NCBI GenBank assembly: GCA_021786385.1
Contig: JAJYNJ010000080.1
Coordinates: 195 to 64,194 of the forward strand
Source of the DNA: Chloroflexota bacterium
GTDB lineage: Bacteria > Chloroflexota > Limnocylindria > Limnocylindrales > CSP1-4
DNA length: 64,000 nucleotides
Direction: 5' to 3'
Shown: piece by piece, positions 13,295 through 64,000 of the stretch
How positions within the stretch are numbered: the stretch's first letter is position 1
Layout: every line of letters begins with the position of its first letter
Notes under the pieces: model-generated
Database searches by the model: none
Told to the model about the DNA's origin: nothing
Seen by the model: the letters and a program-made list of their open reading frames with translations, nothing else
Position numbers and translations under genes: made by a program

Positions 13295-13295
13295 G

Positions 13296-16661: not shown

Positions 16662-16797
16662 CAGCGGTCGCGTGGTGCAGCTCGCGTCGTCTCCGCCACA
16701 AGGGAGGGATCGCTTGCCACGGCGTACAGAAGGGCCCCACGCCGAGCGCCATCCGCGGGGGGCGCCGGCCGGCCCGTGGGAAGGGCTCGCCGAACGG

Positions 16798-21580: not shown

Positions 21581-22860
21581 GCCGTGCTGCCCATCTGGTC
21601 GGGCGCCGCCGACCTGCCGCCACCCAGCACCCGGGCCACCGCCGCGCTGAGGCCGCCCACGATCAGCATGCCCAGGATCCCCGTGATCTCGTAGCCGATC
21701 GCCGCGTGCCAGAGCGGGGCGTTCGCACCCTCGAAGAAGGGGAGCGGTACGTTGTAACCGGAGAGCGGCGCGCTGAAGATGCCCGACAGCTGCTGGAGCC
21801 CTTGCGGCACGTACCCGAACGCGGCCTCGACGTCCTGCGGGCTGCCCTCCCCGTAGGCGAAGCCTGGGGCGATCAGGCCGAGCGGTGCCACCACGGAAAT
21901 GGCGGTGAACGCGGCCCCGATCCGTTTGGCCGGCCGTGGGAGCAGCAGGTACGCGAGCGGCACGAGGACGAGGCCGATCAACGCGACGACGAGGAGCATG
22001 GTGCCGACGTCGGGCCAGCTGACCTGCGACCAGTCGGCGCCGTAGAAGTGGCCCGGGTCTCCGCCGCCCATCAGCAGTCCCAGGACCGCGACGACGAGGA
22101 CAGCGGCGCCGCCGGCGCCCAGCACCAGCTGCCAGAGTGGCCGGGGACTCGACTCGCCCTCGGCCGCGGCGTCGGGCGCGAAGATCCCCCGCAGCGAGGC
22201 GAGGTACTCGGGATGGCGCTGCTGGAAGTACGCCACGCCGAGCCCGGTGATGAGGGCCTCGACGATGGAGGCGCCGAAGGCATGTGCGGCGAGCATGGCG
22301 GGGACCGCCTGCCCGAGCGTGTAGGGGCTGTAGAGCGCGTGGCCGTTCTGCGTGAAGAAGATCGGCTCGACGCCGAGCTCGACGCCCACCGCGAGCGCCG
22401 CCACGGTGATCCCGACGTAGCCACCGATGGCGGCCGCCCAGACACGCCGCGTGGAGAGGAGCGGCGCGCGACCGGCCAGCAGCCGGTACGTCGCGTACCC
22501 GACGAACGGCAGAAGGATCCCCATGTTGAGGCAGTTGGCGAAGATCGCGAGCACCCCGCCGTCTCCGAAGAAGAGTGCCTGGATGATCAACGCCGTGCTC
22601 ACGGCGATCAGCGCCGCCCAGGGGCCGAGCACGATCGCGATGAGGGTGCCCCCGACGCCGTGGGCGGTGGTGCCGCCCGGCACCGGGACGTTGAACATCA
22701 TGATGGTGAAGCTGAGCGCCGCGAAGATCGCCAGCAGCGGGATGGTGCGGTTGTTGAGCACCCGCTTGACGCGCTGCGTCGCGATCGCCCACATGGGCAC
22801 CGTCGCGCCTCCGAGTCCGATCGAGATGACTGGACTCAGATAACCGTCCGGGATGTGCAC
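21577..22860 (-). CDS. cbiM: Cobalt/nickel ECF substrate-capture component CbiM with a long C-terminal membrane extension (CbiN-like / fused)
   Basis: GTG at 22860 with GGGAGG 6 nt upstream. The CbiM N-terminus (M)HIPDGYLSP is canonical. The CbiM core ends near …QQRHPEYLA, and ~190 further residues carry extra TM segments. Confidence 0.8.
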   Translation of the reverse strand: MHIPDGYLSPVISIGLGGATVPMWAIATQRVKRVLNNRTIPLLAIFAALSFTIMMFNVPVPGGTTAHGVGGTLIAIVLGPWAALIAVSTALIIQALFFGDGGVLAIFANCLNMGILLPFVGYATYRLLAGRAPLLSTRRVWAAAIGGYVGITVAALAVGVELGVEPIFFTQNGHALYSPYTLGQAVPAMLAAHAFGASIVEALITGLGVAYFQQRHPEYLASLRGIFAPDAAAEGESSPRPLWQLVLGAGGAAVLVVAVLGLLMGGGDPGHFYGADWSQVSWPDVGTMLLVVALIGLVLVPLAYLLLPRPAKRIGAAFTAISVVAPLGLIAPGFAYGEGSPQDVEAAFGYVPQGLQQLSGIFSAPLSGYNVPLPFFEGANAPLWHAAIGYEITGILGMLIVGGLSAAVARVLGGGRSAAPDQMGSTA

Positions 22861-24039: not shown

Positions 24040-27537
<3,498 letters not shown>

Positions 27538-43165: not shown

Positions 43166-43279
43166 AATCGCGGGCACGGGCGGGCTGGTCGTCGCCGGTC
43201 CGCCCGCCCGATCGATGCCGTATTCGCTCTGCCATCGATCCGGCGCGGCCGCACCATTGGCCACGCCGCAAGGAGGAAC

Positions 43280-43555
43280 GTGGTGCCGGAAGAGGAACGG
43301 AAGAAGCTCGGCGTCGGCGGGATGCTGAAGGGTGTCATGTACGGCATGGCCTCCCACGGGAACGTCACTGCCGCTCTGCGTACGCGGATGTACATGGAGC
43401 ACCTCTTCATGTTCATCACGCTCGGGGACATGCTTGGGATCCCCGTCCTGCCGCCGTACTACTCGCTGCGGCTGCTGCCGTACGCGGTGCCGAACGTGAA
43501 GTCCTGGAAGCAGCGGGTCTTCCGCGAGCGGGATTTCACGGACGCGCTCTACTGA
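43280..43555 (+). CDS. Small conserved hypothetical protein (91 aa), first gene of the ArsA-like ATPase operon; paralog of 46815..47153
   Basis: Shares the motif block LG(D/E)MLGIP…LRLLPYAV with the last gene of the operon. It has no known domain. Confidence 0.55.
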   Translation: MVPEEERKKLGVGGMLKGVMYGMASHGNVTAALRTRMYMEHLFMFITLGDMLGIPVLPPYYSLRLLPYAVPNVKSWKQRVFRERDFTDALY

Positions 43556-43573
43556 ACGGACGCGCTCTACTGA
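43538..43573. repeat. Perfect 18-bp tandem duplication (ACGGACGCGCTCTACTGA x2) spanning the stop codon of the small gene
   Basis: Read directly: …cacggacgcgctctactgaacggacgcgctctactgacacg…. Confidence 0.5.
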
Positions 43574-43671
43574 CACGCCCGGCGCCGGCGCGCGCGGCGG
43601 TGGGAACGATCTCGCCGCACGCCCCGCGGGCGTGCTGGCGTGGCGGCGACTGACAGCGATCGGAGGCGCTC

Positions 43672-44709
43672 GTGCAGGGTCTTGGTCAGTATTTTCGGTC
43701 CCGCGGCTCGACCCCGGAGATCGTGATCTTCGCGGGCAAAGGCGGCTTGGGGAAGACGACGTCCTCGGCGGCGCTGGCCTGGCACATGAGCCAGGTCGAG
43801 GGGAAGAAGACGCTCTGTTTCTCTACCGATCCGCAGGCCTCGCTCTCGGACATTTTCGAGGCGGACATCTTTGGCCGGGGTGTGGTCGAGCTGCGCCCCA
43901 ACCTGTTCGTGGTCGAGATCGACGCCGACCGGCGCGTCCACGACTACCAGGAGCAGGTGCGCGCCAAGATCCGCGACATGTACGGACTGGACCGCGTGCC
44001 CGAGGAGATCGACGAATACATCGAGTCGACCTCGGCTGAACCGGCGATGTACGAGTCGGCCACGTACGACGCGATGGCCGAGCTGGTGGCGGCGCGCGAG
44101 TACGAGCTCTACATCTTCGACATGCCGCCCTTTGGCCATGGCGTCCGCATGGTCGCGATGGCCGACATCCTCTCGAAGTGGGTCGAGAAGATCACCGAGG
44201 CACGCGAAAAGGTGGCCGAGTACGAGGCGGTCGCGGCGACGCTCAAGGGCGGCGGCAAGGAACGCACCGAGGACGCGGTGCTGCACGAGCTGCTCGACAT
44301 CAAGCGCCAAGTCACCAACTTCACCGACCTCATCACGGACCGCCGCCGCACGGCGTTCTTCATGGTGCTGATCCCCGAACAGATGGCGATCGTGGACACC
44401 GAGCGCGCGCTCCGCATGTTCGGCGAGCTCCACATCGAGATGAGCGGGCTGATCGTCAACCAGGTCTACCCGTCCGACCTGCTCGCCGACGCGGAGCTAC
44501 CCGAGTTCCTGCGCAATCGGATCGGGATGCAACAGGGGAACCTGGTCGAGATCAATCGACGGTTCGGCAGCAAGGTGGTGGCGGCGATGCCGATGTTCCC
44601 CCGCGAACCGAAGGGTCTGGAGATGATCCAGGCTGCGGCGCAGGTGCTGATGGATCCGCCGGAGCCGGTGCGCCGGATCTTCGAGGCGGCGCCGGGGGCG
44701 GCACGATGA
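43672..44709 (+). CDS. ArsA/Get3-family P-loop ATPase (BagA-like, short paralog)
   Basis: Deviant Walker A GKGGLGKTT. It has ArsA-family architecture but no metalloid-binding Cys triad. 345 aa, the same size as mycobacterial Rv3679-type proteins. Confidence 0.8.
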   Translation: MQGLGQYFRSRGSTPEIVIFAGKGGLGKTTSSAALAWHMSQVEGKKTLCFSTDPQASLSDIFEADIFGRGVVELRPNLFVVEIDADRRVHDYQEQVRAKIRDMYGLDRVPEEIDEYIESTSAEPAMYESATYDAMAELVAAREYELYIFDMPPFGHGVRMVAMADILSKWVEKITEAREKVAEYEAVAATLKGGGKERTEDAVLHELLDIKRQVTNFTDLITDRRRTAFFMVLIPEQMAIVDTERALRMFGELHIEMSGLIVNQVYPSDLLADAELPEFLRNRIGMQQGNLVEINRRFGSKVVAAMPMFPREPKGLEMIQAAAQVLMDPPEPVRRIFEAAPGAAR

Positions 44710-45830
44710 CCGCGGATCGGCCCGCCATGGGCACCGACCTGGCCTCGTTCTTTGCGGCGCACCCCGACCTGCGGTTCATCTTCACGGGCGGCAAGGGCGG
44801 CGTCGGCAAGACCGTCGCGGCCGCCTCGATCGCGTCGCTCACGGCGCGGGAGGGCCGGCACACGCTCCTCGCGTCGTTGAACCCGGTGCATTCGCTGGCC
44901 AGCCTCTTCGGGCAGAAGCGCCTCGCGTCCGGGCGGATCGAGCCGGTCGACGGCGTGCCCAACCTCGACGCGGTCGAAGTGGAGGCGGACGAGATCATCG
45001 CGCGCTACCGTGACAACATCGGGTCGCGCGTGCGGGAGTTCCTCAAGTGGGCGGACATCCCGGTCGACGCCAAGCCGTTCGTCGAGATCGCGGTGACGAA
45101 CCCCGCGTTCGAGGAATCCGCGATGTTCGACAAGATGATGGAGATCATGCTCAAGGAGGGGCGTGACTACGAGCGGATCGTCTTCGATACCGCTGCGGTC
45201 GCCAACGCGGTCCGCCTGATCGGCCTTTCGAAGATCTACGGCCTCTGGCTGGCCCGCATGATCGACTCTCGGAAGGAAGCGCTGGGGATGCGTGTCCAGC
45301 TCTCGTTCCGCAAGGAGCGGGTGATGGAGGAGGTCGCCCGCGACCCCCTGATGGCCGACCTGCTCGACATGAACGAGCGGTTCACCCAGGTGAAGGCGCT
45401 GCTGACGGACCCCGAGAAGACGGCCTTCTTCTTCGTGACGCTGCCGCTGAGCCTGCCGATCAGCGTGGTCAAGCGCTTCATCACCATGGTCCAGGCGTAC
45501 GACATCCCGATGGGCGGGGTGATCGTGAACCAGGTGCTCCAACCCGAGCTGCTGGGCGCCGGGGGGATGACCCGGATGTCGGATCCCGCAGAGGCCACCG
45601 GGCGCGACGAGACGGGCGGCGCCCACGCGGCGGACTACGTGCGCCACCGCTACCAGGAACAGCTGGGCTACCTGGAGCAGATCCGCACCGACCTCGGGCC
45701 GTACGTGCGTGCCTTCGTGCCGCAATATCCCGACGAGGTGAGCTCGGTCGCTGCGGTCTCTCGGGTGACCGACGACTTGCTCCGCTTCGTCCCCGACTCG
45801 TGGCGGGCGATCGCGGGGGCGGGCGCGTGA
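44706..45830 (+). CDS. ArsA/Get3-family P-loop ATPase (BagB-like, long paralog)
   Basis: ATGA overlap with the upstream ATPase. Deviant Walker A GKGGVGKTV. 374 aa. Confidence 0.8.
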   Translation: MTADRPAMGTDLASFFAAHPDLRFIFTGGKGGVGKTVAAASIASLTAREGRHTLLASLNPVHSLASLFGQKRLASGRIEPVDGVPNLDAVEVEADEIIARYRDNIGSRVREFLKWADIPVDAKPFVEIAVTNPAFEESAMFDKMMEIMLKEGRDYERIVFDTAAVANAVRLIGLSKIYGLWLARMIDSRKEALGMRVQLSFRKERVMEEVARDPLMADLLDMNERFTQVKALLTDPEKTAFFFVTLPLSLPISVVKRFITMVQAYDIPMGGVIVNQVLQPELLGAGGMTRMSDPAEATGRDETGGAHAADYVRHRYQEQLGYLEQIRTDLGPYVRAFVPQYPDEVSSVAAVSRVTDDLLRFVPDSWRAIAGAGA

Positions 45831-46387
45831 TGGCAGGCCTCGCCGACCAAGGGCTTCCATCGGACGCCGACGCGTCCCGCCCGGCCCCAGCGCCCGCGCC
45901 TACCACGCAGATCGTGCTCGGGGCGACCAACCTCCTGATGGGCCCCACGAACTTCGCGAACCTGGAGCTGCCCGAGCCGTGGCGGCTCATGCCGGGGGTC
46001 TCGCCTCCTGAGGTCGACCGGAGCCGCGACTGGGGCGGCAGCGGTTGGGTCACGGCCGGCACCGCGGACTATGTCTTGCGTCGCGCCGAGCCGCTCTTGC
46101 ACGTGGAGCTGCACCTCCGGATCGCGCCATGGCCGGACGGGGCTCGCCAACCGCCGCCGGCGGTCCCCGCCGATGCGCCCACGCTGACCGTGAACGGACA
46201 CGAGGCGCGGCTCTGGCGGGGGTCCGGCATCCGGGGACTGCTGCCGCGGCGTACTGTCCACTGGGCGCGGGCCTGGATCCCGTGTTCACACACCGGACGG
46301 GCGCTCTCGGTGGAGCTCGTCGGCGCCTGCGAGCTCGCCGAAATCGACACCCTCGTGCCGGTGGTCGAGCGGTTGGGGTGCCATTGA
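45830..46387 (+). CDS. Hypothetical protein (185 aa), coupled to the ArsA-like pair
   Basis: Its ATG overlaps the ATPase stop (TGATG). There is no recognisable domain. Confidence 0.5.
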   Translation: MAGLADQGLPSDADASRPAPAPAPTTQIVLGATNLLMGPTNFANLELPEPWRLMPGVSPPEVDRSRDWGGSGWVTAGTADYVLRRAEPLLHVELHLRIAPWPDGARQPPPAVPADAPTLTVNGHEARLWRGSGIRGLLPRRTVHWARAWIPCSHTGRALSVELVGACELAEIDTLVPVVERLGCH

Positions 46388-46818
46388 TGGCGGGAGATGC
46401 GGGAGCGGCGCGCGCCAGCCATCGCCCGCTCCGACTGGAGCTGGTGGGGCTCTTCCCCGAGCTCTTCAGCGTCTGCGCCAGCCGCTGCCTGACCGGCCAG
46501 CTGGCACGAGCGGGGGCCTCCACGGACGACGACCAGCTCCGCGACTACCCGCCCGATCTGTTGGCGGTGCACGAGGCGGCCGGCGAGCTCTTCGCGACGC
46601 TGTTGGCGGAGTTCGGCGGGCGTGTGGCGGTGATTGCGACCGGCACCACGTCGCCCCGTGGGCTCTGGCTCTCACTCCGGCACCGGCTGCCGAGCTCGGG
46701 CGTGGCGGTCTTCCTCGAGGGGCGCCTGCTCGACGCGTCCCTCGAAGACCTGCCTGCGATCCGAAGCGCGGTGGCCGCGGAGTTGGCCGCGCGGAGCGGC
46801 CACGGGGCGGCGGCGTGA
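46387..46818 (+). CDS. Hypothetical protein (143 aa), coupled
   Basis: TGATG overlap with the upstream gene. There is no recognisable domain. Confidence 0.5.
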   Translation: MAGDAGAARASHRPLRLELVGLFPELFSVCASRCLTGQLARAGASTDDDQLRDYPPDLLAVHEAAGELFATLLAEFGGRVAVIATGTTSPRGLWLSLRHRLPSSGVAVFLEGRLLDASLEDLPAIRSAVAAELAARSGHGAAA

Positions 46819-47153
46819 ACCAGGTCGACGGACGCTCGGCGCTTCGCCGCGAGAGGCCGACCGAGGGTGGGGCGGCCCAGGCGCGCGGCCGGCTACGGCG
46901 GGCGATCGGCGCTGCCCGCGAGATCCTCTGGGGCCTGACGCTCTACGACTCGTACCACGAGTCGATGGTCGAGGCGCAGCGGCACCGCGACGCCTTCGAC
47001 GTGCTGATCCTGGGCGAGATGCTGGGCATCCCCCTCATGAACACGACGGTCGGCCTGCGGCTGTTGCCGTACGCCGTCGGCGACCTGGCGGGGTTCCGCG
47101 TGCGCTTCCTGCGCGAGCACGAGGTGCTGGAGCAGGCGCCGCACATCCACTGA
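46815..47153 (+). CDS. Small conserved hypothetical protein (112 aa), paralog of 43280..43555
   Basis: GTG start overlapping the upstream stop (GTGA). It shares LGEMLGIP…LRLLPYAV with the first gene of the operon. Confidence 0.55.
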   Translation: MNQVDGRSALRRERPTEGGAAQARGRLRRAIGAAREILWGLTLYDSYHESMVEAQRHRDAFDVLILGEMLGIPLMNTTVGLRLLPYAVGDLAGFRVRFLREHEVLEQAPHIH

Positions 47154-52568: not shown

Positions 52569-53506
52569 CCCGTCTGCGGATCCCACCCCCCAGCCTGACC
52601 GACCTTGGACGACAGCGGCCGCCCGAGCACGGCGGCGATGAAGCGGGCCGCATCGAGCAGCCGCGGCAGGTCGACTCCGTGGCCGAACCCGAGGCCGTCG
52701 AGTAGGTAGACTAGGTCCTCGGTCGCCAGGTTGCCGGCCGCGCCGGGGGCGTACGGGCACCCGCCGGTGCCCCCCGTCGACGCGTCGAAGCAGCGGACGC
52801 CCGCGTCGAGACCGGCCACCACGTTCGCCACCGCGGTCCCGCGCGTATCGTGGAAATGGAGCGCCACTCGCTCCATCGGGATCCCCGCCGCGGTGGCTCG
52901 CGCGAGCAGCGCTCGCACGTGCGACGGCACGGCGACACCGACCGTGTCCCCGAAGCAGACTTCGTCCACGCCGAGATCCAAGAGCCGCTCGGCGACGCGC
53001 ACCGCGCGCTCGGGCTCGACCCGCCCGGTGTAGGGACAGCCGAAGGCGGTCGAGACGTATCCGCGCCGCCACCAGCCGAGCCCACCCGCCCGCTCCAGCA
53101 CTGTGGCGAACGTTTCGAGCGAGGCGTCTACGCGCATCCCGATGTTGTGCTCCGCAAAGGCGTCCGTGGCTGCGGTGAAGACCGCGATCGCGTCGGCTCC
53201 GGCGCTCGCGGCCCGTTCGAGACCGCGCAGGTTCGGCACGAGAACCGGATAGCGGACGCCCCGGCGGCGCGGCAGGAGGGGCAGCAGCGCATCGGCATCC
53301 GCGAGCTGCGGCACCGCCCGGAGTGCCACGAAGCTCGTGGCCTCGATCTCACGAAGCCCGGCCGCGACCAGCAATTCGATGAAACGGCGCTTCTCCACGG
53401 TCGGGACAGGCCGCGCCTCGTTCTGCAGGCCGTCGCGCGGTCCCACCTCGTAGATGCGGACGTATTCGCGACCCAGGTTCCCGCCGGGGCCGTCGGAGGC
53501 GCTCAT
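52538..53506 (-). CDS. Hydroxymethylglutaryl-CoA lyase
   Basis: HMGL family: EVGPRDGLQNE at the N-terminus, the catalytic Cys region GCPY, and HFHDTRG. 322 aa. Confidence 0.85.
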   Translation of the reverse strand: MSASDGPGGNLGREYVRIYEVGPRDGLQNEARPVPTVEKRRFIELLVAAGLREIEATSFVALRAVPQLADADALLPLLPRRRGVRYPVLVPNLRGLERAASAGADAIAVFTAATDAFAEHNIGMRVDASLETFATVLERAGGLGWWRRGYVSTAFGCPYTGRVEPERAVRVAERLLDLGVDEVCFGDTVGVAVPSHVRALLARATAAGIPMERVALHFHDTRGTAVANVVAGLDAGVRCFDASTGGTGGCPYAPGAAGNLATEDLVYLLDGLGFGHGVDLPRLLDAARFIAAVLGRPLSSKVGQAGGWDPQTGQPVGRGSEG

Positions 53507-55509
53507 CGCTCGCGGCCTGTGGCCCGTCGCGCCGCTCGCGTCGGCCGACCCGACCCGATCACGCGGCCGTCCGACGTCGCGCCGCCCCGCGCGTCCCTGC
53601 CCGCGCCGTGGCCATCGTCCGCCGTCGCGCCGCCCTGGGCGCCGATCACGGCCAGCAACTGCCCCCCGCTCACCTGGTCGCCGGGCCGCACGAGTAGGTC
53701 CGTCACGATTCCCGGCCGAGGGGCCGTCACGACCTGCTCCATCTTCATCGCCTCGAGAGTCGCGATCGGGTCGCCCGACGCCACCGCCGAGGACTCGGCG
53801 ACGTGGACCGCGAGCACGCGTCCCGGCATGGGCGCAGCCACCTCCGACCCGCTTCCAGGTCCGCGTTGCCCCGCCTGTCGCGCGGCGAGGTCGACCTCGG
53901 GCGCCGGCGCGATCCGACATGGCACGCTGCACCCCGCGAGGTCGAGGTGGACCGTGCCGTCGGCCAGTATGCAGGGGACGTCGGGCACCGGGTCCCCGTG
54001 CGGCCGCCCCACGTCCCGGGCCGGGAGCCGCACCATCCGCTCGTCTGTGCCGCAGCGCAGCCGCACCGCCGGGGGAGCGTTGAGACGCCAGCCCCCGCGC
54101 CAGGGATCTCCCGCGCGTGTCGCGGCAGCCTCCTCCAGCAGGAGCCGCGCGGCCAGCTGCCACGCGGCCTCCGGGATGTGGGGTGGCCCCCAGTCCTCGG
54201 GCGGCGGCCAGTAGCGTTCGAGTGTGTCGGTGCGGGCCACTCCTTCGCGGACCAGCGGCGAACGCACCAGCCAGCGTAGGAAGCGCAGGTTCGTCGTCAG
54301 CCCGAGCACCCGGGTCGCGTCGAGCGCGTCGGCCAGCCGGCCCAGCGCCTCGTCCCGGCCGCGACCCCAGACCGCGATCTTGGCGAGCAGCGGGTCGAAA
54401 CGGCCGGTCACCTCGTCGCCGACCGCGATCCCGGGCTCCACGCGGACGTGCGGGCCCCGCGGCCAGCCGATGGCTTCGACGCGTCCCGTGGCCGGGAGGA
54501 AGCCGGCCGCGGGATCCTCCGCGTAGAGCCGTACCTCAACGGCATGCCCGGCGAGCTCGACGTCGCGCTGTGCGATGCCGAGCCGTTCGCCGACGGCGAT
54601 GCGAAGCTGGTCCGCGACCAGGTCGCGTCCGGTCACGAGCTCGGTCACTGGATGCTCGACCTGCAGGCGCGTGTTCATCTCGAGGAACCACCACGCGCCG
54701 GAGTCGTCCACCAGGAACTCGCACGTGCCGGCCGACGTGTACCCGACTGCGGCGGCGAGTCGCAGCGCCGCAGTCGCGAGCGCTTCCCGCAGCGACCCGT
54801 GGACCGTGGGCCCCGGCGCCTCCTCGAGCACTTTCTGGAAGCGCCGCTGGACGGAGCAGTCGCGCTCGCCGAGGTGGATGGCGGCGCCGAAGCCATCGGC
54901 GAGCAGCTGGATCTCCACGTGACGTGCCGGTGCCACGTGGCGTTCGAGGAGCAGCCGCTCGTCGCCGAACGCGGTCTGCGCCTCCCGCCGTGCCGCGGCC
55001 ACGGCCGCTCCCAGTTCCGCCGGCCCGCGCACGATGTGCATCCCCTTGCCACCACCGCCGCCCGCCGGCTTGACGAGCAGCGGCAGGCCGATGCGGACGG
55101 CCTCCTCCAGCAGCGTCGCGTCCGACTGGTCATCGCCGTCGTAGCCCGGCAGGACCGGGATGCCGAGCGACGCCGCAAGGCGCCGGGCGCCGGCCTTGTC
55201 GCCCATCGCCCGGATGGCATCTGGCGGTGGCCCCACCCAGCGCAACCCTGCTGCGAGGACCGCCTCCGCGAACGCGGCCTGCTCGGAGAGGAAGCCGTAG
55301 CCGGGGTGGAGGGCATCCGCCCCTACCTGCAGTGCCGCGCCGACGACCGCCGCAGGGTCGAGCAAGTCGAGCCCTGGATCGACGTCGCGGTGAGGCAGCA
55401 CCGCGTCGATTCCCAGCCGTCTGCAGGTCCGTTCGATGCGGGCCGCGATCTCGCCGCGGTTCGCGATGAACAGGACGCGAAGCGGGCCGGCCGCGGTCCG
55501 AGCGCTCAC
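53503..55509 (-). CDS. mccA: 3-methylcrotonyl-CoA carboxylase alpha subunit (biotin carboxylase plus BCCP)
   Basis: Biotin carboxylase ATP-grasp (…EMNTRLQVEHPVTE…) and a C-terminal biotinyl domain (EAMKME). GTG start near 55509. The stop overlaps the lyase start. Confidence 0.85.
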   Translation of the reverse strand: MSARTAAGPLRVLFIANRGEIAARIERTCRRLGIDAVLPHRDVDPGLDLLDPAAVVGAALQVGADALHPGYGFLSEQAAFAEAVLAAGLRWVGPPPDAIRAMGDKAGARRLAASLGIPVLPGYDGDDQSDATLLEEAVRIGLPLLVKPAGGGGGKGMHIVRGPAELGAAVAAARREAQTAFGDERLLLERHVAPARHVEIQLLADGFGAAIHLGERDCSVQRRFQKVLEEAPGPTVHGSLREALATAALRLAAAVGYTSAGTCEFLVDDSGAWWFLEMNTRLQVEHPVTELVTGRDLVADQLRIAVGERLGIAQRDVELAGHAVEVRLYAEDPAAGFLPATGRVEAIGWPRGPHVRVEPGIAVGDEVTGRFDPLLAKIAVWGRGRDEALGRLADALDATRVLGLTTNLRFLRWLVRSPLVREGVARTDTLERYWPPPEDWGPPHIPEAAWQLAARLLLEEAAATRAGDPWRGGWRLNAPPAVRLRCGTDERMVRLPARDVGRPHGDPVPDVPCILADGTVHLDLAGCSVPCRIAPAPEVDLAARQAGQRGPGSGSEVAAPMPGRVLAVHVAESSAVASGDPIATLEAMKMEQVVTAPRPGIVTDLLVRPGDQVSGGQLLAVIGAQGGATADDGHGAGRDARGGATSDGRVIGSGRPTRAARRATGRER

Positions 55510-55538
55510 CACGCCCCCATGGTAGCGGTGGGCGCCAG

Positions 55539-55808
55539 TCAGCCCTCCTGGTGCCGGTACCGCCGTGCCACCGAGATCGTCGCGATCCCCACCACCAGGG
55601 CCACCGAGTTCGAGACCACCAGCGCCGGGTTCCGGATCGAGAACCCGTACGCCGCCCAGAGCAGGAAGCCGACCAACAGGACGGACAGATACCCGATCGA
55701 AACGTCCGCCGACGATCGTCGTTGGACCATGCGTCTGATCTGGAGCAATGGGCTGATGCCCATGAGCACGCCCCAGGCCGTCGCCACGACGGCAAGCGCA
55801 TCCATCAT
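55539..55808 (-). CDS. SemiSWEET / PQ-loop small membrane transporter
   Basis: ~90 aa with 3 TMs and the PQ-loop motif (ISPLLQIRRMVQRRSSADVS). It is embedded between mccB and mccA. Confidence 0.6.
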   Translation of the reverse strand: MMDALAVVATAWGVLMGISPLLQIRRMVQRRSSADVSIGYLSVLLVGFLLWAAYGFSIRNPALVVSNSVALVVGIATISVARRYRHQEG

Positions 55809-56021
55809 GTCTCTCCCGCAAACACGACTGCGCTCTGGCGAACGGACCACGCTCACTGGATGCCAGGAGGAGCGCACGCGCGGCGATCACGATTGTACGA
55901 AGCGGCTGTCCGAAGCGGTGCCTGAAGAAGCGCCATCGGCCCGCCGCCTGCGCCCCTGGCGCCCGCGCGGCCGGGCCTCGGCTGGATGCAACGAGGCTCG
56001 GCCAGCTGAGTCGAGCCTTGG

Positions 56022-57671
56022 CTACATGCGGAAGACGCCGAAGCGAGTCTCAGGGATCGGTGCGTGGAGCGCGGCCTCGATCCCCAGGGCCAGCAGACGC
56101 CGGGTGTCGAGCGGGTCGATCACGCCGTCGTCCCAGAGGCGGGCGGTCGCGTACCAGGGCGACCCCTCGCGCTCGTAGGCGTCCAGGATCGGGGTCTCGA
56201 ACGCCGCCCGATCCGCTTCGGACGGCCAGCGTCCTCCCGGCAGCGACGCTTCCCGCACCGTGGAGAGCACGCGCGCCGCCTGCTGGCCGCCCATCACGCT
56301 GATCCGGCTGTTCGGCCAAGACCAGAGGAAGCGCGGCTGGTAGGCGCGCCCCGCCATCGCGTAGTTGCCGGCGCCGAAGCTCCCCCCGACCAGCACGGTG
56401 AACTTCGGCACCTCGGCGCACGCCACGGCCATCACGAGCTTCGCGCCGTGCTTGGCGATCCCGCCGGCCTCGTACTCGCGGCCGACCATGAAGCCGGCGA
56501 TGTTCTGCAGGAAGACCAGCGGCACGCGGCGCTGCACCGCCAGCTCGATGAAGTGCGCCCCCTTCAACGCCGACTCGCTGAAGAGGATGCCGTCGTTGGC
56601 GAGGATCGCGACCGGATAGCCTTCCACGTGCGCGAACCCGCAGACGAGGGTCGCGCCGTAGAGCGGCTTGAACTCGTGGAAACGGCTGCCGTCGACGAGC
56701 CGCGCGATCACCTCGCGAGCATCCAGCCGGCCCCGGCGCAGGTCGCTCGGGATCACGTCATAGAGGCCGGCGGAGCCGTCGCTCCCATCCGATCCGACCG
56801 CCGGAGGCAGCGGCGCCAGGCGCTCCCACGGAGGGTCGGGTGCGGGGCGGGCAAGGTTGCGCACGATCGATCGGCCGAGCGCGAGCGCGTGCTCGTCGTC
56901 AAGCGCCTCGTAGTCCGCCACGCCGCTGACTCGGGCGTGCACCTCCGCGCCGCCCAGCTCCTCGGCCGAGACGTTCTCGCCCGTCGCCGCCTTCACCAGC
57001 GGGGGCCCGCCCAGGAAGATCGTGCCCGTCCCGCGCACGATCACCGTCTCGTCGCTCATCGCCGGCACGTATGCGCCGCCCGCGGTGCAGCTGCCCATCA
57101 CGAGCGCGATCTGTGGGATGCCGAGCGCCGACATGCGGGCCTGGTTGTAGAAGATGCGGCCGAAATGGTCGCGGTCCGGGAAGACCTCGGCCTGCAGCGG
57201 CAGGTAGGCCCCGCCCGAGTCGACCAGATAGAGGCAGGGCAGGCGGTTTTCGAGAGCGATCTCCTGCGCGCGGAGGTGCTTGCGGACTGTGAGCGGATAG
57301 TAGGTGCCGCCCTTCACCGTCGCGTCGTTGGCGATCACGACGCAGGTGGTGCTCTCGATCCGCCCGATTCCCGTGACGATACCGGCCGACGGGACCGCTT
57401 CGTCGTAGACACCGTCGGCGGCGAGCGGGCTCAGCTCGAGGAACGCGCTGCCCGGGTCCAGCAGCCGGTCGATGCGCTCCCGGACCGGCAGTTTCCCCCG
57501 GGCACGGTGGCGCTCGATCGACGCCTCGTCGCCCCCGGCTCCGCGGCCCGCCACGGCTTCCTGGCGCGCCCTCAGCTCGGCCACCAGGGCCTCCATCGCG
57601 GCGCGGTTCGCCTGAGCCTCCGGGCTCTGGGGATCGGCGCGACTGCGTAGCACGGGCATGCTGCGGATCAT
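56022..57671 (-). CDS. mccB: Methylcrotonyl-CoA carboxylase beta subunit (carboxyltransferase)
   Basis: Acyl-CoA carboxyltransferase alpha/beta domains with the MccB-like N-terminus (…[18 protein letters not shown]…). 549 aa. Confidence 0.85.
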
Positions 57672-57893
57672 AGCCCGGCGTCGTCCCGCGATCGCGCGGT
57701 GACCGACTGGATGTCTCGGCGGCCCCGCCGGGGTGCCGAGACAGCTGGCGTATCGAGCCTGACACTTCGTGATTCGTGGTCATCAAGCCATAGTCATGTG
57801 CAAAACGAGGCTGGGCCAGCTAGGATGCGCGAAAGTCGTCGTGAACGTGCCCGAGGTCTGTGTCGCGCCCGCGGGGAACGCAGGAGAGGTGTC

Positions 57894-59111
57894 ATGAAGG
57901 TGCTGCTGGTCGGAGCCGGGACCGTCGGCGAGTCGATCGCCAGACTCAGCGCGGGACGCCACTGGCTCGAGCGGATGGTCGTGGCCGACTACGACCTGGA
58001 CCGTGCACGCCGCGTGGCGGTTGCCGCCGGCGGCGAGCCCACCTTCAGCGCCGCCCAGATCGACGCCTCCGACCGCGCTCAGGTGGCTGGGCTCGCGACG
58101 CAACACGGCGTGGACTTGGTGCTGAACGCCGTCGACCCGCGCTTCGTGATGCCCATCTTCGACGGCGCGTTCGAGGCAGGGGTCGACTACATGGACATGG
58201 CCACGAGCCTCTCGGTCCCGCACCCGACCGACCCGTACCACCAGACGGGCGTGAAGCTGGGCGACGAGCAGTTCGCCCGCGCTGCAGCCTGGCGCGACCG
58301 GGGCCGCCTTGCGTTGGTCGGCATGGGGATGGATCCGGGTCTCTCGGACGTCTTTGCCGCGTATGCGGCAAAGCACCTCTTCGACACGGTCGAGACGGTC
58401 GACGTGCGCGACGGCGGCGATCTGCGCATCGAAGGCTACCCGTTCGCGACGGTCTTCTCGATCTGGACGACGATCGAGGAGTGCCTGAACCCGCCGGTGA
58501 TCTGGGAGCGCGAGCGCGGCTGGTATACGGTGGAGCCGTTCGCCGAGCCCGAGCTCTTCGCGTTCCCCGAGGGGGTCGGCCCCGTGGAGTGCGTCCACGT
58601 CGAGCACGAAGAGGTGCTGCTGGTCCCGCGCTGGATCGATTGCCGCCGGGTCACGTTCAAGTACGCGCTGGGAGCCGAGTTCATCGACACGCTGCGCAAG
58701 CTGCATGCGCTCGGGCTCGACAGCAAGGAGCCAGTGCGCGTCAAGGGCGTAGCGGTCGCACCGCGCGACGTGGTCGCGGCGGTGACGCCCGACCCGGCCA
58801 CGATCGGCGACCGGATGGTCGGCAGGGCGATCGTCGGAACGCTCGTGTCGGGTGTGCGGGGCGGGCGGCCGCGCGAGGTCTATCTGTACCAGGCGTCCGA
58901 TGCGCAGGAGACGATGCGGCGCTTCGGGCTGCAGGTGGTCGGATACCAGACCGGATTCAACCCGGTCCTGGCGATGGAGCTGCTGGCCGAGGGTGCCTGG
59001 CACGGCGAGGGCGTGTTGGGACCGGAGGCGTTCGACCCCGACCCGTACGTAGCACTCCTGGACCGGTACGGCATCCATCACGCGATCGAGGAACGGGCAG
59101 ACCGCGCCTGA
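57894..59111 (+). CDS. Saccharopine dehydrogenase NADP-binding family protein
   Basis: ATG with AGGAGAGG upstream. Rossmann N-terminus MKVLLVGAGTVGESIA. Sacchrp_dh family. Confidence 0.75.
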   Translation: MKVLLVGAGTVGESIARLSAGRHWLERMVVADYDLDRARRVAVAAGGEPTFSAAQIDASDRAQVAGLATQHGVDLVLNAVDPRFVMPIFDGAFEAGVDYMDMATSLSVPHPTDPYHQTGVKLGDEQFARAAAWRDRGRLALVGMGMDPGLSDVFAAYAAKHLFDTVETVDVRDGGDLRIEGYPFATVFSIWTTIEECLNPPVIWERERGWYTVEPFAEPELFAFPEGVGPVECVHVEHEEVLLVPRWIDCRRVTFKYALGAEFIDTLRKLHALGLDSKEPVRVKGVAVAPRDVVAAVTPDPATIGDRMVGRAIVGTLVSGVRGGRPREVYLYQASDAQETMRRFGLQVVGYQTGFNPVLAMELLAEGAWHGEGVLGPEAFDPDPYVALLDRYGIHHAIEERADRA

Positions 59112-59442
59112 CGTCGGCCCGGCGCCGTGCGCCGGCGCCCGCCCCCCGTGCCTGCCCGTGTGCCCGACCCCGTGCCCGTCCCCCTGCGGAGCCGTGGGTC
59201 GGCGGGCACGGGGTCGTGCCGCACGGCCGTTCGCGGAGCAGCCTTTTTCCCCGGCCAGTGCCGCCATCCGGCACTTCTGGCTCGCCGCCCTGGGTCCCTT
59301 GCTGCAGCCGCGCCCCGGCAGAACGATGACGGCGATTGCGATGGCCAGGCCGAGGGGGCGGGGCGCGGGCTGACGGCGACCGCCGCCGGGCTGCCTCCCG
59401 CTGCGGGCCGACGCCCGTTGTCGAAGAGATGGGAGGTTGCCG

Positions 59443-60033
59443 GTGACCCAGGACCAGCTGGCCCCACCAGCGGTCGCCGATCCGGGTCGGGGGTTCCTCG
59501 CGGAAGTGGTCGCCCGCGCGGGAACGGCCGCGCGGCTCGAGCTGTGCATCCAGTGCGGCGTCTGCGGCGGCTCGTGCCCATCGGCGGACGAGATGGACCA
59601 GACGCCGCGGACTCTCTTCGCGATGATCCGCGCGGGCATGCGGGAGCACGTCCTGCGCAGCACCACGCCGTGGCTGTGCGTCTCCTGTTACCGCTGCACG
59701 GTTCGCTGTCCCCAGGGCGTACAGGTGACGGACGTGATGTACGCGCTGAAGGCGATGGCGGTGGCGCAACACACGTACCTGAACGCAACCGCCGCGGACT
59801 TCTCCCGAGCCTTCGTCTGGAACGTCGAGACGTTCGGACGGAGCTTCGAGGCGGGTCTCAGCGCCCGCCACTATCTGCGCCACTACCTGACGCGGCTCCC
59901 GGCGGTGGCTCCGATGGGGATCGGCATGCTGCGCAGTCGCCGCCTGAGGCTCCTGCCTCCACGGCGGATCCGCGGCATCGCTGACCTGCGGCGGATCCTG
60001 GTCTGCGCCAAGGCGCTGGAGGCTGCGGCGTGA
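59443..60033 (+). CDS. hdrC: Heterodisulfide reductase subunit C-like 4Fe-4S protein (HdrC)
   Basis: Two CxxCxxCxxxCP ferredoxin motifs (CIQCGVCGGSCP, CVSCYRCTVRCP). GTG with GGGAGG 6 nt upstream (a TTG at 59437 is also possible). Confidence 0.8.
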   Translation: MTQDQLAPPAVADPGRGFLAEVVARAGTAARLELCIQCGVCGGSCPSADEMDQTPRTLFAMIRAGMREHVLRSTTPWLCVSCYRCTVRCPQGVQVTDVMYALKAMAVAQHTYLNATAADFSRAFVWNVETFGRSFEAGLSARHYLRHYLTRLPAVAPMGIGMLRSRRLRLLPPRRIRGIADLRRILVCAKALEAAA

Positions 60034-61025
60034 CCAGATACCTGTACTACCCGGGCTGCTCGATGGAGAGCAACGCTCGTGCGTATCGTGACTCGCTGGC
60101 GGCGATTGCCGGGCCGCTGGGGATCGACCTGCGCGAGATCGACGACTGGAACTGCTGCGGAGCGACCGAGTACCTCGGCCTGAGCCGGCTCCCGGCCTAC
60201 GCCCTGATTGCCCGCAACCTCGCGCTCGCCGAACAGGTGCGCGACGGCTCGGAGGTCCTCGTCGCGTCCTGTAGCGCCTGCTTCCTCAACCTGTCCAAGG
60301 CCAACCATGCCATGGCCGAGAGCGCGGCGTTCAGCGCCCAGGTCAACGAGGCGCTCGCCGCCGGCGGTCTGCACTACACCCCCGACGCCGTCAAGGTGCG
60401 GCACCTCCTCGACGTGATCGTCCGTGAGGTCGGGCTCGATGCCGTGCGCCGCCGGGTGACGCGGCGCCTGTGCGGGCTCAAGCTGGCTCCGTACCTCGGC
60501 TGCATGGTGCCACGGCCCGACTACGACGGACGCTGGACCGACCGCGAGCGGCCGAGCGAACTCGATCGCCTGCTCGTCGCGCTCGGCGCGGAGGTCGTGG
60601 ACTACCCGCTCAAGACCGAGTGCTGTGGTGGGCACATGACCCAGATCGGCCCGGAGACGGCCTTTGCGATGATCCGGCGCTTGGTAGACGGGGCGGAACG
60701 AGCTGACGCCGACCTGATGGTCACGGTGTGCCCGATGTGCCAGATGAACATCGACGCGTTCCAGCAAGAGATGAACGCGCATTTCCGGACCAGCTACCAG
60801 ATGCCGATCGTCTTCTTCACCCAAGTGATCCGCCTGGCGTTCGGCATCGCGCCCGAGGCCCTTGGCTTCGGACGGGAGCTGGTCGACGCGCGGCCCGCCC
60901 TGGCGCACATCTCGGATGCGCCTGCGCCGCCACCCGAACCGGCCCGGGTGCGGCGTCCGCCGCGTCCCAAGGGCCCGGCGCTGCCGATGCCGGTGATGCC
61001 CGAGCGCGGGGACGGAGCAACATGA
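60030..61025 (+). CDS. hdrB: Heterodisulfide reductase subunit B-like (two CCG domains)
   Basis: CCG-domain cysteine signatures (NCCGATEYLG, …ECCGGHM…, VCPMCQMN). Overlapping coupling to hdrC and hdrA. Confidence 0.85.
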   Translation: MTRYLYYPGCSMESNARAYRDSLAAIAGPLGIDLREIDDWNCCGATEYLGLSRLPAYALIARNLALAEQVRDGSEVLVASCSACFLNLSKANHAMAESAAFSAQVNEALAAGGLHYTPDAVKVRHLLDVIVREVGLDAVRRRVTRRLCGLKLAPYLGCMVPRPDYDGRWTDRERPSELDRLLVALGAEVVDYPLKTECCGGHMTQIGPETAFAMIRRLVDGAERADADLMVTVCPMCQMNIDAFQQEMNAHFRTSYQMPIVFFTQVIRLAFGIAPEALGFGRELVDARPALAHISDAPAPPPEPARVRRPPRPKGPALPMPVMPERGDGAT

Positions 61026-63109
61026 CCCACGCTGGCAACGGGGGACCTCGCCCCGAGACCGCGTCCGCGGCGGCCGGCGACCCGCGGATCGGCGTATACG
61101 TCTGCCACTGCGGCAGCAACATCGCGGGGACGGTTGACGTCGCGGCGGTACGTGACTGGGCCGCCACGCAGCTGCGGTCACGTGGCGTGGTGGTGGCCCA
61201 GGACTACCGCTTCATGTGCTCCAGCCTGGGCCAGGAGCTGATCGAGCGGGAGATCCGGGAAAAGGGCATCAACCGCGTGGTGGTGGCGGCCTGTTCACCG
61301 CACCTGCACGAGGGCACGTTCCGCACGGCCTGCGAACACGCCGGCCTGAACCCCTACCTTTGCGAGCTCGTCTCGATCCGCGAGCAAGATTCGTGGGTCC
61401 ACGCGGATCGCGCCGCGGCGACGGAGAAAGCGAAGGCGATCGTCGCGGGCGGTGTCGAGCGCGTCCGGCACGATGCGGAGTTGGTGCCGCTGCGGGTCCC
61501 CATCCATCCGGCCACGCTGGTCGTGGGCGGGGGGATCGGTGGCATCTCCGCCGCCCTGGAGCTCGCCAACGCCGGCTATCCCGTCTATCTCGTCGAGCGC
61601 GAGCCGTCGCTGGGCGGACACATGGCGCAGTTCGACAAGACGTTTCCGACGCTCGACTGCTCCGCCTGCATCCTGACCCCGCGCATGGTGGAAGCGGGCA
61701 GCCACCCCAACATCACGCTCCTGACCTACAGCGAGGTCGAGCGCGTCGAGGGGTACGTGGGCAACTTCACGGTGACGATCCGCCGGCGCGCGCGCCAGGT
61801 GGACGAATCGCTCTGCACCGGCTGCGGCATCTGTTGGGAGAAGTGCCCCGTCGCCGTGATCGACACGCAGTTCGAGGCGGGGCTGGGGTACCGCAAGGCC
61901 ATCTACGTGCCGTTCCCCCAGGCGGTCCCCAAATTCCCCGTGATCGACCGCGACAACTGCACGTACTACGAGCGCGGGACGTGCCGGGCCTGCGAGAAGT
62001 TCTGCCCGCCGCAGGCAATCCGGTTCGACCAGGACGACGAGCTGCTCACGGTCGATGTGGGCGCCATCGTGCTGGCCACCGGTTTCAGGTTGTTCGACGC
62101 GCGGCGCGTCCCGCAGTACGGCTACGGCCGCCTGCCGAACGTCTTCTCCAGCCTCGAGTTCGAGCGCCTCTCCAACGCGGCGGGCCCGACGGGCGGCCGG
62201 GTGGTGCTGCGGGACGGGGTGACCGAGCCCCGGGCGGTGGGCATCGTGCACTGCGTCGGCAGTCGGGACCGCGCCTACAACTGGTACTGCTCGGCCATCT
62301 GCTGCATGCAGAGCTTGAAGTTTGCGCACCTGGTCAGAGAGCGCACCGGGGCGACCGTCTACGAGTGCTACATCGACATGCGCACGCCAGCCAAGGGGTA
62401 CGACGAGTTCTATCAGCGACTGATCGAGGAAGGCACGCTCTTCGTCCGCGGCAAGGTCGCTGCGATCAGCGAAGGAGGCCCCACGCCGGAGGAAGCGGGT
62501 CGGCTCGTGATCCAGGTGGAGGACACGCTCGTCGGCCGGCAGCGGCGCATCCCGGTCGACATGGTGATCCTCTCGAACGCGCTGGAGCCGCAGGCGGATG
62601 CCCGTGAGGTCGCCAAGCGTTTCGGTATCTCGTGCAGTCTCGATGGCTGGATGATCGAGCGTCACCCGAAGCTCGACCCGGTCGCCACGATGACCGAGGG
62701 CGTCTTCGTGGCGGGTGCCGCCCAGGGTCCCAAGGACATCCCGACCACGGTGGCCCAAGGCGCGGCGGCCGCGGCCCGCGTGCTCGGCCGGATCCAGCAG
62801 GGCGAGATGGCGCTCGAGCCGATCCGCGCCAGCGTCGATGCGGTGCGCTGCTCGGGCTGCCGCATCTGCAACAACCTCTGCCCCTTCAACGCCATCACGT
62901 TCGACGAGGACCGCATGAGCACCGAGATCAACCCGGCGCTCTGCCAGGGCTGCGGCACGTGCATCGCCGCCTGTCCGGCTGGGGCCATCAGCGGCACGGT
63001 CTTTGGGACCGCGCAGATCCTCTCGCAGATCGACGGGCTGCTCCTGCGGACCGCAGCGGCCACGGCGGAGCCGGCCGTCTCGGTCCAACTCGAAGGGGTG
63101 CCGGCATGA
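61022..63109 (+). CDS. hdrA: Heterodisulfide reductase subunit A-like FAD/Fe-S flavoprotein (HdrA)
   Basis: ATGA overlap with hdrB. FAD Rossmann (LVVGGGIGGISAALELA), multiple 4Fe-4S motifs (CTGCGICWEKCP, CSGCRICNNLCP, CQGCGTCIAACP), and the HdrA N-terminal CHCGSN cluster. Confidence 0.85.
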   Translation: MTHAGNGGPRPETASAAAGDPRIGVYVCHCGSNIAGTVDVAAVRDWAATQLRSRGVVVAQDYRFMCSSLGQELIEREIREKGINRVVVAACSPHLHEGTFRTACEHAGLNPYLCELVSIREQDSWVHADRAAATEKAKAIVAGGVERVRHDAELVPLRVPIHPATLVVGGGIGGISAALELANAGYPVYLVEREPSLGGHMAQFDKTFPTLDCSACILTPRMVEAGSHPNITLLTYSEVERVEGYVGNFTVTIRRRARQVDESLCTGCGICWEKCPVAVIDTQFEAGLGYRKAIYVPFPQAVPKFPVIDRDNCTYYERGTCRACEKFCPPQAIRFDQDDELLTVDVGAIVLATGFRLFDARRVPQYGYGRLPNVFSSLEFERLSNAAGPTGGRVVLRDGVTEPRAVGIVHCVGSRDRAYNWYCSAICCMQSLKFAHLVRERTGATVYECYIDMRTPAKGYDEFYQRLIEEGTLFVRGKVAAISEGGPTPEEAGRLVIQVEDTLVGRQRRIPVDMVILSNALEPQADAREVAKRFGISCSLDGWMIERHPKLDPVATMTEGVFVAGAAQGPKDIPTTVAQGAAAAARVLGRIQQGEMALEPIRASVDAVRCSGCRICNNLCPFNAITFDEDRMSTEINPALCQGCGTCIAACPAGAISGTVFGTAQILSQIDGLLLRTAAATAEPAVSVQLEGVPA

Positions 63110-63744
63110 GTGCCCCGCCGAGCGCGGCGCCGCCCCTGCCGCTTCCCGCAGCGCTGTCGCCCTCGCCGCCGGCCGCCCCGGTCGGAGCAGGCGCCCGGGC
63201 GGCCGAGGGTCGCTTCGAGCCGGTCGTGATCGGCTTCACCTGCAACTGGTGCAGCTACCGTGCGGCCGATCTGGCCGGCACCTCGCGTCTGAAGTACCCG
63301 CCCAACATCCGGCTGATCCGGCTCATGTGTTCGGGCCGGCTCGACCCGACCTTCGTGCTGAAGGCGTTCGCCGACGGTGCGGACGGGGTGATGGTGAGCG
63401 GCTGCCATCCCGGCGACTGCCACTACGTCGATCAGAATTACAAGACGCTGCGCCGCCATCGACTCCTGCAGCGCACGCTCGAACAGTTCGGCATCGCGGC
63501 GGGGCGGCTACGGCTGACGTGGGCCAGCGCGGGCGAGGGCGCGCTCTTCGCACAGGAGATCACGACGTTCGTCGAGCAGGTGCGCGCGTTGGGTCCGCTG
63601 CGCTGGCCCACGGCGCTCGCGCGCGACGACGCGGCTCCGCTTCCGTGCGGGCCGGTATCCGACGCCGGGGTGCCGGCAGGCGACGCGGAGGCAGCGGCGC
63701 CCGACGGCGCGACGTCGTGGCGCACCGCGGAGGTGACCGCGTGA
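63106..63744 (+). CDS. mvhD: MvhD-like hydrogenase iron-sulfur (delta) subunit
   Basis: ATGA overlap with hdrA. MvhD/FlpD signature (FTCNWCSYRAADLAG…MCSGRLDP…VSGCHPGDCHY). Confidence 0.8.
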   Translation: MSAPPSAAPPLPLPAALSPSPPAAPVGAGARAAEGRFEPVVIGFTCNWCSYRAADLAGTSRLKYPPNIRLIRLMCSGRLDPTFVLKAFADGADGVMVSGCHPGDCHYVDQNYKTLRRHRLLQRTLEQFGIAAGRLRLTWASAGEGALFAQEITTFVEQVRALGPLRWPTALARDDAAPLPCGPVSDAGVPAGDAEAAAPDGATSWRTAEVTA

Positions 63745-64000
63745 GCGCTGCGACCGGGAACGCCAGGCCCAAGTTCGCGATGTACTGGGCCGCCTCGTGC
63801 GGCGGCTGCGACATCGCCGTGCTCAACACTGGGGAGCGGATCCTCGCGCTCGACGCCGCCTTCGACCTGGTCTTCTGGCCGATCGTGATGGACGCCAAGT
63901 ACCGCGACGTCGCGGCGCTACCGGACGGCGCGCTCGCGTTGACGCTCTTCAGTGGCAGCATCCGCAACCGCGAGAACGAAGAGCTGGCGCTCCTGCTGCG
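63741..64000 (+). CDS. [NiFe]-hydrogenase small subunit (MvhG/FrhG-like), 5'-partial; it runs off the window end
   Basis: GTG overlapping the mvhD stop (GTGA). The N-terminus …KFAMYWAASCGGCDIAVLN carries the proximal-cluster CxxC signature of hydrogenase small subunits. It is absent from the ORF track because no stop lies within the window. Confidence 0.7.
   Translation, partial: MSAATGNARPKFAMYWAASCGGCDIAVLNTGERILALDAAFDLVFWPIVMDAKYRDVAALPDGALALTLFSGSIRNRENEELALLL

Follow-up and report, generated by a model that had tools for sequence, protein, structure and literature searches.

The stretch of DNA analyzed here (the window) comprises 64,000 nucleotides of contig JAJYNJ010000080.1 from an uncultured, high-GC Chloroflexota bacterium (GenBank assembly GCA_021786385.1; Limnocylindrales, CSP1-4) and ends within a cluster of genes similar to those for the heterodisulfide reductase (Hdr) and the F420-non-reducing hydrogenase (Mvh) of methanogens. 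This raises the question of whether the locus encodes a complete Mvh-Hdr complex and, if so, with which partners and in which direction the enzyme operates. A preliminary description of the window had claimed the gene order hdrC-hdrB-hdrA-mvhD-mvhG, a tight coupling of these genes, and a run-off of the cluster at the window end. We found that the five genes are a real and intact part of an Mvh-Hdr operon. This operon has eight genes, namely, hdrC, hdrB, hdrA, mvhD, mvhG, mvhA, an endopeptidase gene, and an ACT-domain gene, and it extends past the end of the window.

Gene content and limits of the operon

All five genes were present in the claimed order on the plus strand, each matching its family:

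59112..59442, plus strand: leader upstream of hdrC, presumed promoter region, with the ribosome-binding site GGGAGG about 7 nucleotides 5' of a GTG start
59443..60033, plus strand: hdrC-like ferredoxin subunit, 196 amino acids (Pfam Fer4_8/Fer4_17; TIGR03290, 77 bits)
60030..61025, plus strand: hdrB-like catalytic subunit, 331 amino acids (two CCG domains; PF02754, TIGR03288)
61022..63109, plus strand: hdrA-like bifurcating flavoprotein, 695 amino acids (HdrA2 model NF040770, 787 bits; PDB 8rvu_a)
63106..63744, plus strand: mvhD-like [2Fe-2S] adaptor subunit, 212 amino acids (PF02662, 173 bits; PDB 8rvu_F)
63741..64000, plus strand: mvhG-like [NiFe] small subunit, first 86 codons (Oxidored_q6/VhuG matches on the fragment)

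The E-values of the family matches ranged from 1e-21 to 1e-236, which rules out chance, and the 196-amino-acid hdrC gene is called identically in public records. The tight coupling is evident from the sequence, in which all four gene junctions are 4-bp start/stop overlaps (GTGA or ATGA). The start of hdrC is the GTG at position 59443; this codon and the GGGAGG ribosome-binding site are both kept in the related locus L007, unlike a TTG at position 59437. The alignment of the window with L007 also revealed a conserved leader block, GGGAGGT.GCCGGTGACCCA. Promoter and terminator scans detected neither a sigma-70 consensus nor intrinsic terminators at either operon end, and because of this the leader can only be presumed to act as a promoter. 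A scan of the whole window against Rfam returned no matches. The GC content of the window was 69 to 75% throughout, except at approximately 40 to 46 kb, where it was 0.67 to 0.69.

The cluster indeed runs off the window, since the small subunit stops after 86 codons, and near-identical contigs hold the rest. An exact-sequence look-up of MvhD retrieved 19 public contigs. One of them, L002 (ENA ERZ27236928), which was also retrieved with the exact HdrA sequence, differs from window positions 53106-64000 by one mismatch over 10,895 bases, and the other five near-identical loci share 99.6 to 99.9% identity with the window. The following genes complete the operon in L002:

mvhG, complete, 336 amino acids (VhuG, 184 bits)
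11657-13147: [NiFe] large subunit mvhA, 496 amino acids (best model VhuA NF041785, 362 bits; PF00374)
13171-13890: maturation endopeptidase, 239 amino acids (TIGR00072, 92 bits)
13896-14309: ACT-pair protein, 137 amino acids, at the end of the operon (ACT domain matches)

The large subunit and the maturation gene that the preliminary description had expected downstream are thus both present, in contigs 99.6 to 99.99% identical to the window. The absence of a large-subunit gene, which it had named as grounds for abandoning the hydrogenase assignment, did not occur: the 496-amino-acid [NiFe] large subunit follows the small subunit. On the 3' side of the ACT-pair gene, L002 carries MprF-like and esterase genes on the opposite strand.

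Conservation of the cofactor-binding residues

To compare the subunits with the solved methanogen complex, we counted the cysteines of its template chains that are conserved in the aligned sequences. HdrA aligned with 8rvu_a over residues 18-676 of 695 (682 bits, 49.5% identity) and retains 26 of the 28 template cysteines, with one more displaced by a single residue. It consists of an N-terminal Fe-S domain, a domain similar to flavin adenine dinucleotide (FAD)/thioredoxin reductase proteins, and two 2x[4Fe-4S] ferredoxin domains, one inserted and one at the C terminus. MvhD shares 55% identity with 8rvu_F (168 bits) and retains five of the six template cysteines; its N- and C-terminal extensions are rich in Ala and Pro. 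The full MvhG sequence from L002 matched 5odc_E over its whole length (205 bits, 43% identity), with 12 of the 14 template cysteines, which bind three [4Fe-4S] clusters. HdrB contains two CCG domains (PF02754, 84 bits in two stretches; TIGR03288, 167 bits), presumed to provide the ligands of two noncubane [4Fe-4S] clusters, and all 10 template cysteines are kept with respect to 9sfi_C (134 bits, 30% identity). HdrC is a Fer4 dicluster protein, and its translation contains two CX2CX2CX3CP [4Fe-4S] motifs, CIQCGVCGGSCP and CVSCYRCTVRCP.

The Ni-Fe motifs of the large subunit are RICGVCPEAHH (C61, C64) and DPCFGCATH (C463, C466, H469), and these metal motifs are invariant across 22 homologues. 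The latter motif is followed by a 27-amino-acid C-terminal tail; tails of this type are cleaved off by hydrogenase maturation endopeptidases. The N terminus of the small subunit, VSAATGNARPKFAMYW, is devoid of an RRxF motif and hence of a twin-arginine signal, and because of this the enzyme is probably cytosolic. The preliminary description had regarded the CCG domains, the HdrA flavin and Fe-S sites, and the cysteine motifs of MvhD and the small subunit as intact, and the comparison with the solved templates agrees with this view. Taken together, these comparisons show that the full chain of cofactors known from archaeal MvhAGD-HdrABC is preserved, with nearly all of its Fe-S cysteines.

The system resembles the methanogen MvhAGD-HdrABC complex (5ODC, 8RVU, 9SW2) in having the same six subunits, a probable cytosolic location, and its own endopeptidase, and in the similarity of HdrA over its full length, MvhD, MvhG, and the large subunit. 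It differs from the methanogen system in its bacterial host, in the location of all genes in a single operon (hdrCBA-mvhDGA), in the low identity of HdrB, in the presumable absence of the coenzyme M (CoM)/coenzyme B (CoB) heterodisulfide, in the lack of an MvhB polyferredoxin gene, in the additional terminal ACT-domain gene, and in a large subunit that belongs to a separate deep clade.

Assignment of the hydrogenase

The group to which the large subunit belongs was assessed by scores against PDB sequences, NCBIfam models, and a small neighbor-joining tree. The best PDB matches were the following:

7t2r_D, NiFe-HydL of Acetomicrobium mobile (A. mobile): 384 bits
5odc_F, MvhA: 369 bits
9sw2_F, MvhA: 342 bits
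9sfi_g, VhuA-like: 332 bits
5xf9_D, group 3d HoxH: 307 bits

Among the NCBIfam models, VhuA scored highest (362 bits, with an equivalog cut-off of 800), followed by FrhA (155 bits) and ShyA (146 bits). Identities were approximately 42% to archaeal MvhA/VhuA, 43% to HydL, and 38% to HoxH. In the tree, whose base is not resolved, the large subunits from Chloroflexota formed a separate deep clade and were not nested within archaeal MvhA.

The small subunit discriminates between the candidates better than does the large subunit and, judging from its alignments, is of the long three-cluster MvhG type. HydS (179 amino acids) and HoxY (189 amino acids) align only with its residues 8-183 (72 and 46 bits, respectively). 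An enzyme of the A. mobile HydABCSL type (7T2R), whose large subunit is the top PDB match, was thus ruled out: its short small subunit is matched over the N-terminal half only, and its partners, the NuoEFG-like HydABC subunits with flavin mononucleotide, are absent here, where MvhD and HdrABC are found instead.

HydDB defines group 3c functionally as "heterodisulfide reductase-linked" (PMC5037454), and the Chloroflexi clade has been assigned to this group (bioRxiv 10.1101/2021.08.23.457424). Because the small subunit is of the long MvhG type and shares an operon with MvhD and HdrABC, the enzyme is predicted to be of the group 3 type, which is consistent with this functional definition. The initial proposal of a group 3-type cytosolic hydrogenase coupled to an Hdr module therefore holds for the MvhG-like small subunit without a twin-arginine motif, the full-length HdrABC proteins, and the best-scoring VhuA hidden Markov model, and needs qualification for the large subunit, which stands in its own deep clade.

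A second group 3 [NiFe] hydrogenase was noted a few kilobases downstream of the Mvh-Hdr operon in three related loci (L054:15948-17898, L058:15733-17685, and L083:13713-15137). Its large subunit is 36 to 41% identical to that of the operon studied here, and it grouped in the neighbor-joining tree with the branch of A. mobile HydL and HoxH.

Distribution and conservation among relatives

Homologues of the large subunit number more than 8,000 in the databases, and the nearest named ones are annotated as "F420-non-reducing hydrogenase large subunit" or derive from metagenome-assembled genomes (MAGs) of Anaerolineae/Chloroflexi. A scan of species-representative genomes with this protein matched at least 596 genomes, mostly of Chloroflexota, and the locus comparisons reported here rest on the best 80 of them. 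Nearly all of these 80 belong to Chloroflexota (Anaerolineae, Anaerolineales, Promineifilaceae, Ardenticatenaceae, Thermoflexales, and Limnocylindria), and three bins carried other labels (Gemmatimonadales, Chthonomonadaceae, and Hydrogenophilaceae). The closest large subunits (70 to 88% identity) came from Chloroflexota MAGs, with 85 to 88% for the closest of the 80.

Gene order was determined by tblastn with the window proteins and judged where the locus was long enough. The order hdrC-hdrB-hdrA-mvhD-mvhG-mvhA-protease was found in nearly all of these loci, with L056 and L072 as exceptions, and identities were 67 to 86% for HdrA and 69 to 88% for MvhA. This preserved order, together with these identities, indicates that the operon as a whole is under strong purifying selection. 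HdrC and HdrB fell into two identity classes, namely, approximately 47 to 82% and 34 to 45%. The divergent class, with HdrA at approximately 70 to 75%, included L014, L018, L034, L035, L038, L044, L057, L059, L065, L074, L079, L080, and L085; most of these loci have histidine kinase and response regulator genes and an HdrD-like CCG protein upstream, the latter in approximately 11 loci. This suggests that the disulfide-reducing module was swapped or diverged independently in the divergent loci.

The arrangement is neither rare nor new, and the locus is one more example of a known and very common operon type. In a 2021 preprint, West-Roberts et al. (bioRxiv 10.1101/2021.08.23.457424) already described this arrangement for Chloroflexi, reporting a group 3c [NiFe] hydrogenase with upstream hdrABC from Anaerolineae and Dehalococcoidia, and Mvh was recorded in Chloroflexi RBG-2 (Hug et al. 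2013, PMC3971608). The present operon agrees with those of Anaerolineae and Dehalococcoidia in operon type, phylum, and proposed bifurcating role; it differs from them in its origin from a lineage with 72% GC and in the lack of adjacent electron transfer flavoprotein, HdrD, and hyp genes. What the locus adds is one further operon that is intact and has the complete set of cofactors, in a Chloroflexota lineage of high GC content. Its value is that of a confirmatory annotation, which offers no handle on the partner beyond that provided by hundreds of other genomes.

Search for a conserved partner

We clustered all open reading frames (ORFs) located within 5 kb of the operon across the 80 loci. 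The linked thiol/disulfide partner that the preliminary description had suggested looking for did not emerge from this clustering, which identified no universally conserved partner within this distance. A stand-alone protein with a cyclic nucleotide monophosphate (cNMP)-binding domain was encoded 3' of the protease gene in 35 of the 80 loci (PF00027, 55 bits). This protein has 156 amino acids and no DNA-binding domain. The ACT-pair protein holds the same post-protease position in the clade of the window (six loci), which sets the window apart from the relatives with the cNMP-domain gene; a PDB search with the ACT-pair protein returned weak generic ACT matches only. The terminal ACT or cNMP-domain protein may be a regulatory subunit or sensor of the hydrogenase. 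Genes for hypA, hypF, hypC, and hypD were located downstream in approximately 8 to 14 of the 80 loci.

Proposed mechanism

In the archaeal complex, electron bifurcation takes place at the FAD of HdrA, and the reaction is 2 H2 + CoM-S-S-CoB + 2 Fd(ox) -> HS-CoM + HS-CoB + 2 Fd(red)- + 2 H+ (PMC5861303; PMC8880783), in which ferredoxin (Fd) is taken as a one-electron carrier. In the most likely reading of the present locus, which we hold with considerable confidence, an MvhAGD-type [NiFe] hydrogenase, probably located in the cytosol, would join HdrABC in a reversible, flavin-based bifurcating/confurcating complex that links H2, ferredoxin, and a disulfide. Because nearly all cofactor ligands are conserved, we infer a wiring as in the archaeal complex, and complex formation, bifurcation, partners, and direction are to be read in the same conditional sense. 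The large subunit would cleave H2 at its Ni-Fe site. The electrons would then reach the HdrA FAD by way of the three [4Fe-4S] clusters of MvhG and the MvhD [2Fe-2S] cluster, and the pair would bifurcate at this flavin. In the uphill branch, one electron would travel through the HdrA ferredoxin domains to ferredoxin, whereas the other one would take the downhill branch via HdrC, arrive at the pair of noncubane clusters in HdrB, and reduce the disulfide there. The overall reaction would be reversible; in reverse, reduced ferredoxin and thiol would yield H2, and the complex would act as a redox valve under anoxia.

The disulfide is very probably not CoM-S-S-CoB, since HdrB is far more divergent than HdrA and the scores of HdrB and HdrC lie below the equivalog cut-offs. 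As for the direction, net H2 evolution and H2 uptake appear about equally likely in this lineage, with evolution slightly favored under the low H2 pressures found in soil, and genome-based models have proposed both uptake (PMC3971608) and production (PMC11650866). Confurcating H2 evolution in anoxia at low environmental H2 would be thermodynamically attractive. The archaeal complex is extremely sensitive to O2 (PMC5861303), and because of this the complex is expected to be used in anoxic phases only. A more specific version, in which an Mvh-Hdr complex with a novel thiol/disulfide cofactor or protein would be an H2-evolving confurcating valve in hypoxia and would be regulated allosterically by the ACT or cNMP-domain protein as one of its subunits, is speculative and in our judgment rather improbable. 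As bacterial Mvh-Hdr is very widespread, its disulfide partner and physiological direction matter for H2 cycling and flavin-based bifurcation.

Alternative explanations

Several observations weigh against the assignment as a bifurcating MvhAGD-HdrABC complex. HdrB and HdrC missed the equivalog cut-offs of their models (345 bits in TIGR03288 for HdrB; 160 bits in TIGR03290 for HdrC), the identity of HdrB to its archaeal counterpart is low enough that its substrate probably differs, and the large subunit lies outside archaeal MvhA. The surroundings of the operon in the 80 loci lacked a conserved thiol-carrier, DsrC/TusA/LbpA, or ferredoxin gene, and no hyp maturation genes were detected in the annotated parts of the window or directly downstream. 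The archaeal enzyme is O2 sensitive, whereas the gene content of the window is in part that of a respiratory heterotroph, so that use of the complex would be confined to anoxic phases. To our knowledge, no Mvh-Hdr of Chloroflexota is backed by biochemical or expression evidence, and we know of no bacterial Mvh-Hdr complex that has been biochemically characterized.

Part of this evidence would also fit the same complex with a different electron acceptor, such that HdrB acts on protein-bound sulfur (a DsrC-like trisulfide/disulfide, a lipoamide-type carrier, or a thioredoxin-like protein) or only passes electrons on to a CCG/HdrD-type partner in the membrane that connects to the quinone pool. 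Divergence is greatest in HdrB and HdrC, which form two classes among relatives (50 to 65% and 34 to 45% identity) in which HdrA remains near 70 to 86%, the HdrD-like CCG protein is found upstream in the divergent class, and bacterial Hdr-like systems with protein sulfur carriers exist (PMC6776052). However, the neighborhoods of the 80 operons hold no conserved gene for such a carrier, none is present in the window, and all 10 cysteines of the HdrB noncubane clusters are kept as in the enzyme that acts on a small molecule, so that we regard this alternative as possible but unlikely. It is very unlikely, in our view, that the complex does not bifurcate at all and instead transfers electrons directly between H2 and either a disulfide (as a sulfhydrogenase-like enzyme) or ferredoxin, with the flavin of HdrA acting as a mere conductor. 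The separate clade of the large subunit would be compatible with this, and bifurcation is not known from any bacterial Mvh-Hdr, but HdrA is complete in length, possesses both ferredoxin domains, and shares almost all cluster ligands with the archaeal enzyme that bifurcates, and mere conduction poorly explains why a 695-amino-acid flavoprotein with six clusters is kept over hundreds of species.

Hydrogenase-free systems (sHdr, FlxABCD-HdrABC, and HdrABC-MvhD-MetFV) share the CCG-domain HdrB, HdrC, and a flavoprotein of the HdrA family with the present locus, and some of them also an MvhD-like subunit. MvhD/FlpD and HdrABC occur in modules for formate dehydrogenase, methylene-tetrahydrofolate reductase, Flx-type NADH dehydrogenase, and sHdr (PMC5736913), the window by itself ends before the large subunit, and a gene of the FdhF/YdeP family is located 46 kb upstream of the operon. 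In contrast to all of these systems, which have no [NiFe] hydrogenase, the genes directly downstream in the near-identical contigs encode both hydrogenase subunits, small and large, together with the endopeptidase, and no fdh, metFV, flxABC, lbpA, dsrE, or tusA gene adjoins the operon. In sHdr, HdrA is short (approximately 350 amino acids, without ferredoxin domains), hdrB and hdrC are duplicated, and lbpA, dsrE, and tusA are neighbors, whereas the HdrA analyzed here has 695 amino acids and scored 682 bits against archaeal HdrA versus 138 bits against the short sHdr-type 6tjr_A, hdrC and hdrB are single, and no sulfur-carrier genes were found within 10 kb of the operon. The downstream hydrogenase genes and the long form of HdrA thus ruled out the FlpD/formate, MetFV, Flx, and sHdr readings, leaving them with a negligible probability. 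The concern of the preliminary description that the genes might belong to a FlpD/formate or sulfur-metabolism Hdr complex was not borne out, and the assignment as a hydrogenase stands.

Other genes of the window

Just upstream of the operon, the window contains a saccharopine dehydrogenase-like gene and a leucine catabolism set on the opposite strand that encodes methylcrotonyl-CoA carboxylase subunits, HMG-CoA lyase, an acyl-CoA dehydrogenase, and an AMP-ligase. A Ni/Co uptake cluster was identified approximately 40 kb upstream of the operon, at window positions 15555-22860, and could serve as the nickel supply for the hydrogenase:

15555-16661: HoxN/HupN/NixA-family permease (TIGR00802, 393 bits)
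16714-17238: Fur-family regulator
17229-22860, minus strand: energy-coupling factor transporter of the CbiMQO type (CbiM, CbiQ, and three ATPases)

The FdhF/YdeP-family gene mentioned above encodes a molybdopterin oxidoreductase of 875 amino acids (TIGR01701, 654 bits) and adjoins a gene for an FdhD-like sulfurtransferase (10667-14033, minus strand). As it does not adjoin the Hdr genes, it probably has no relation to them. An island of lower GC content (approximately 0.67) at positions 41396-47153 encodes CstA and two ATPases of the Get3/ArsA fold with weak BagA/BagB-like matches, flanked by two small DUF7990/"cory-CC-star"-like proteins and two proteins without a family match. The window further contains a large PAS-PAS-GAF-GAF-GGDEF signaling protein (3569-6121, plus strand) and a 2-oxoglutarate dehydrogenase of the OdhA type (24040-27405, minus strand), in which the E1 and E2 domains are fused, an architecture known from Actinobacteria.

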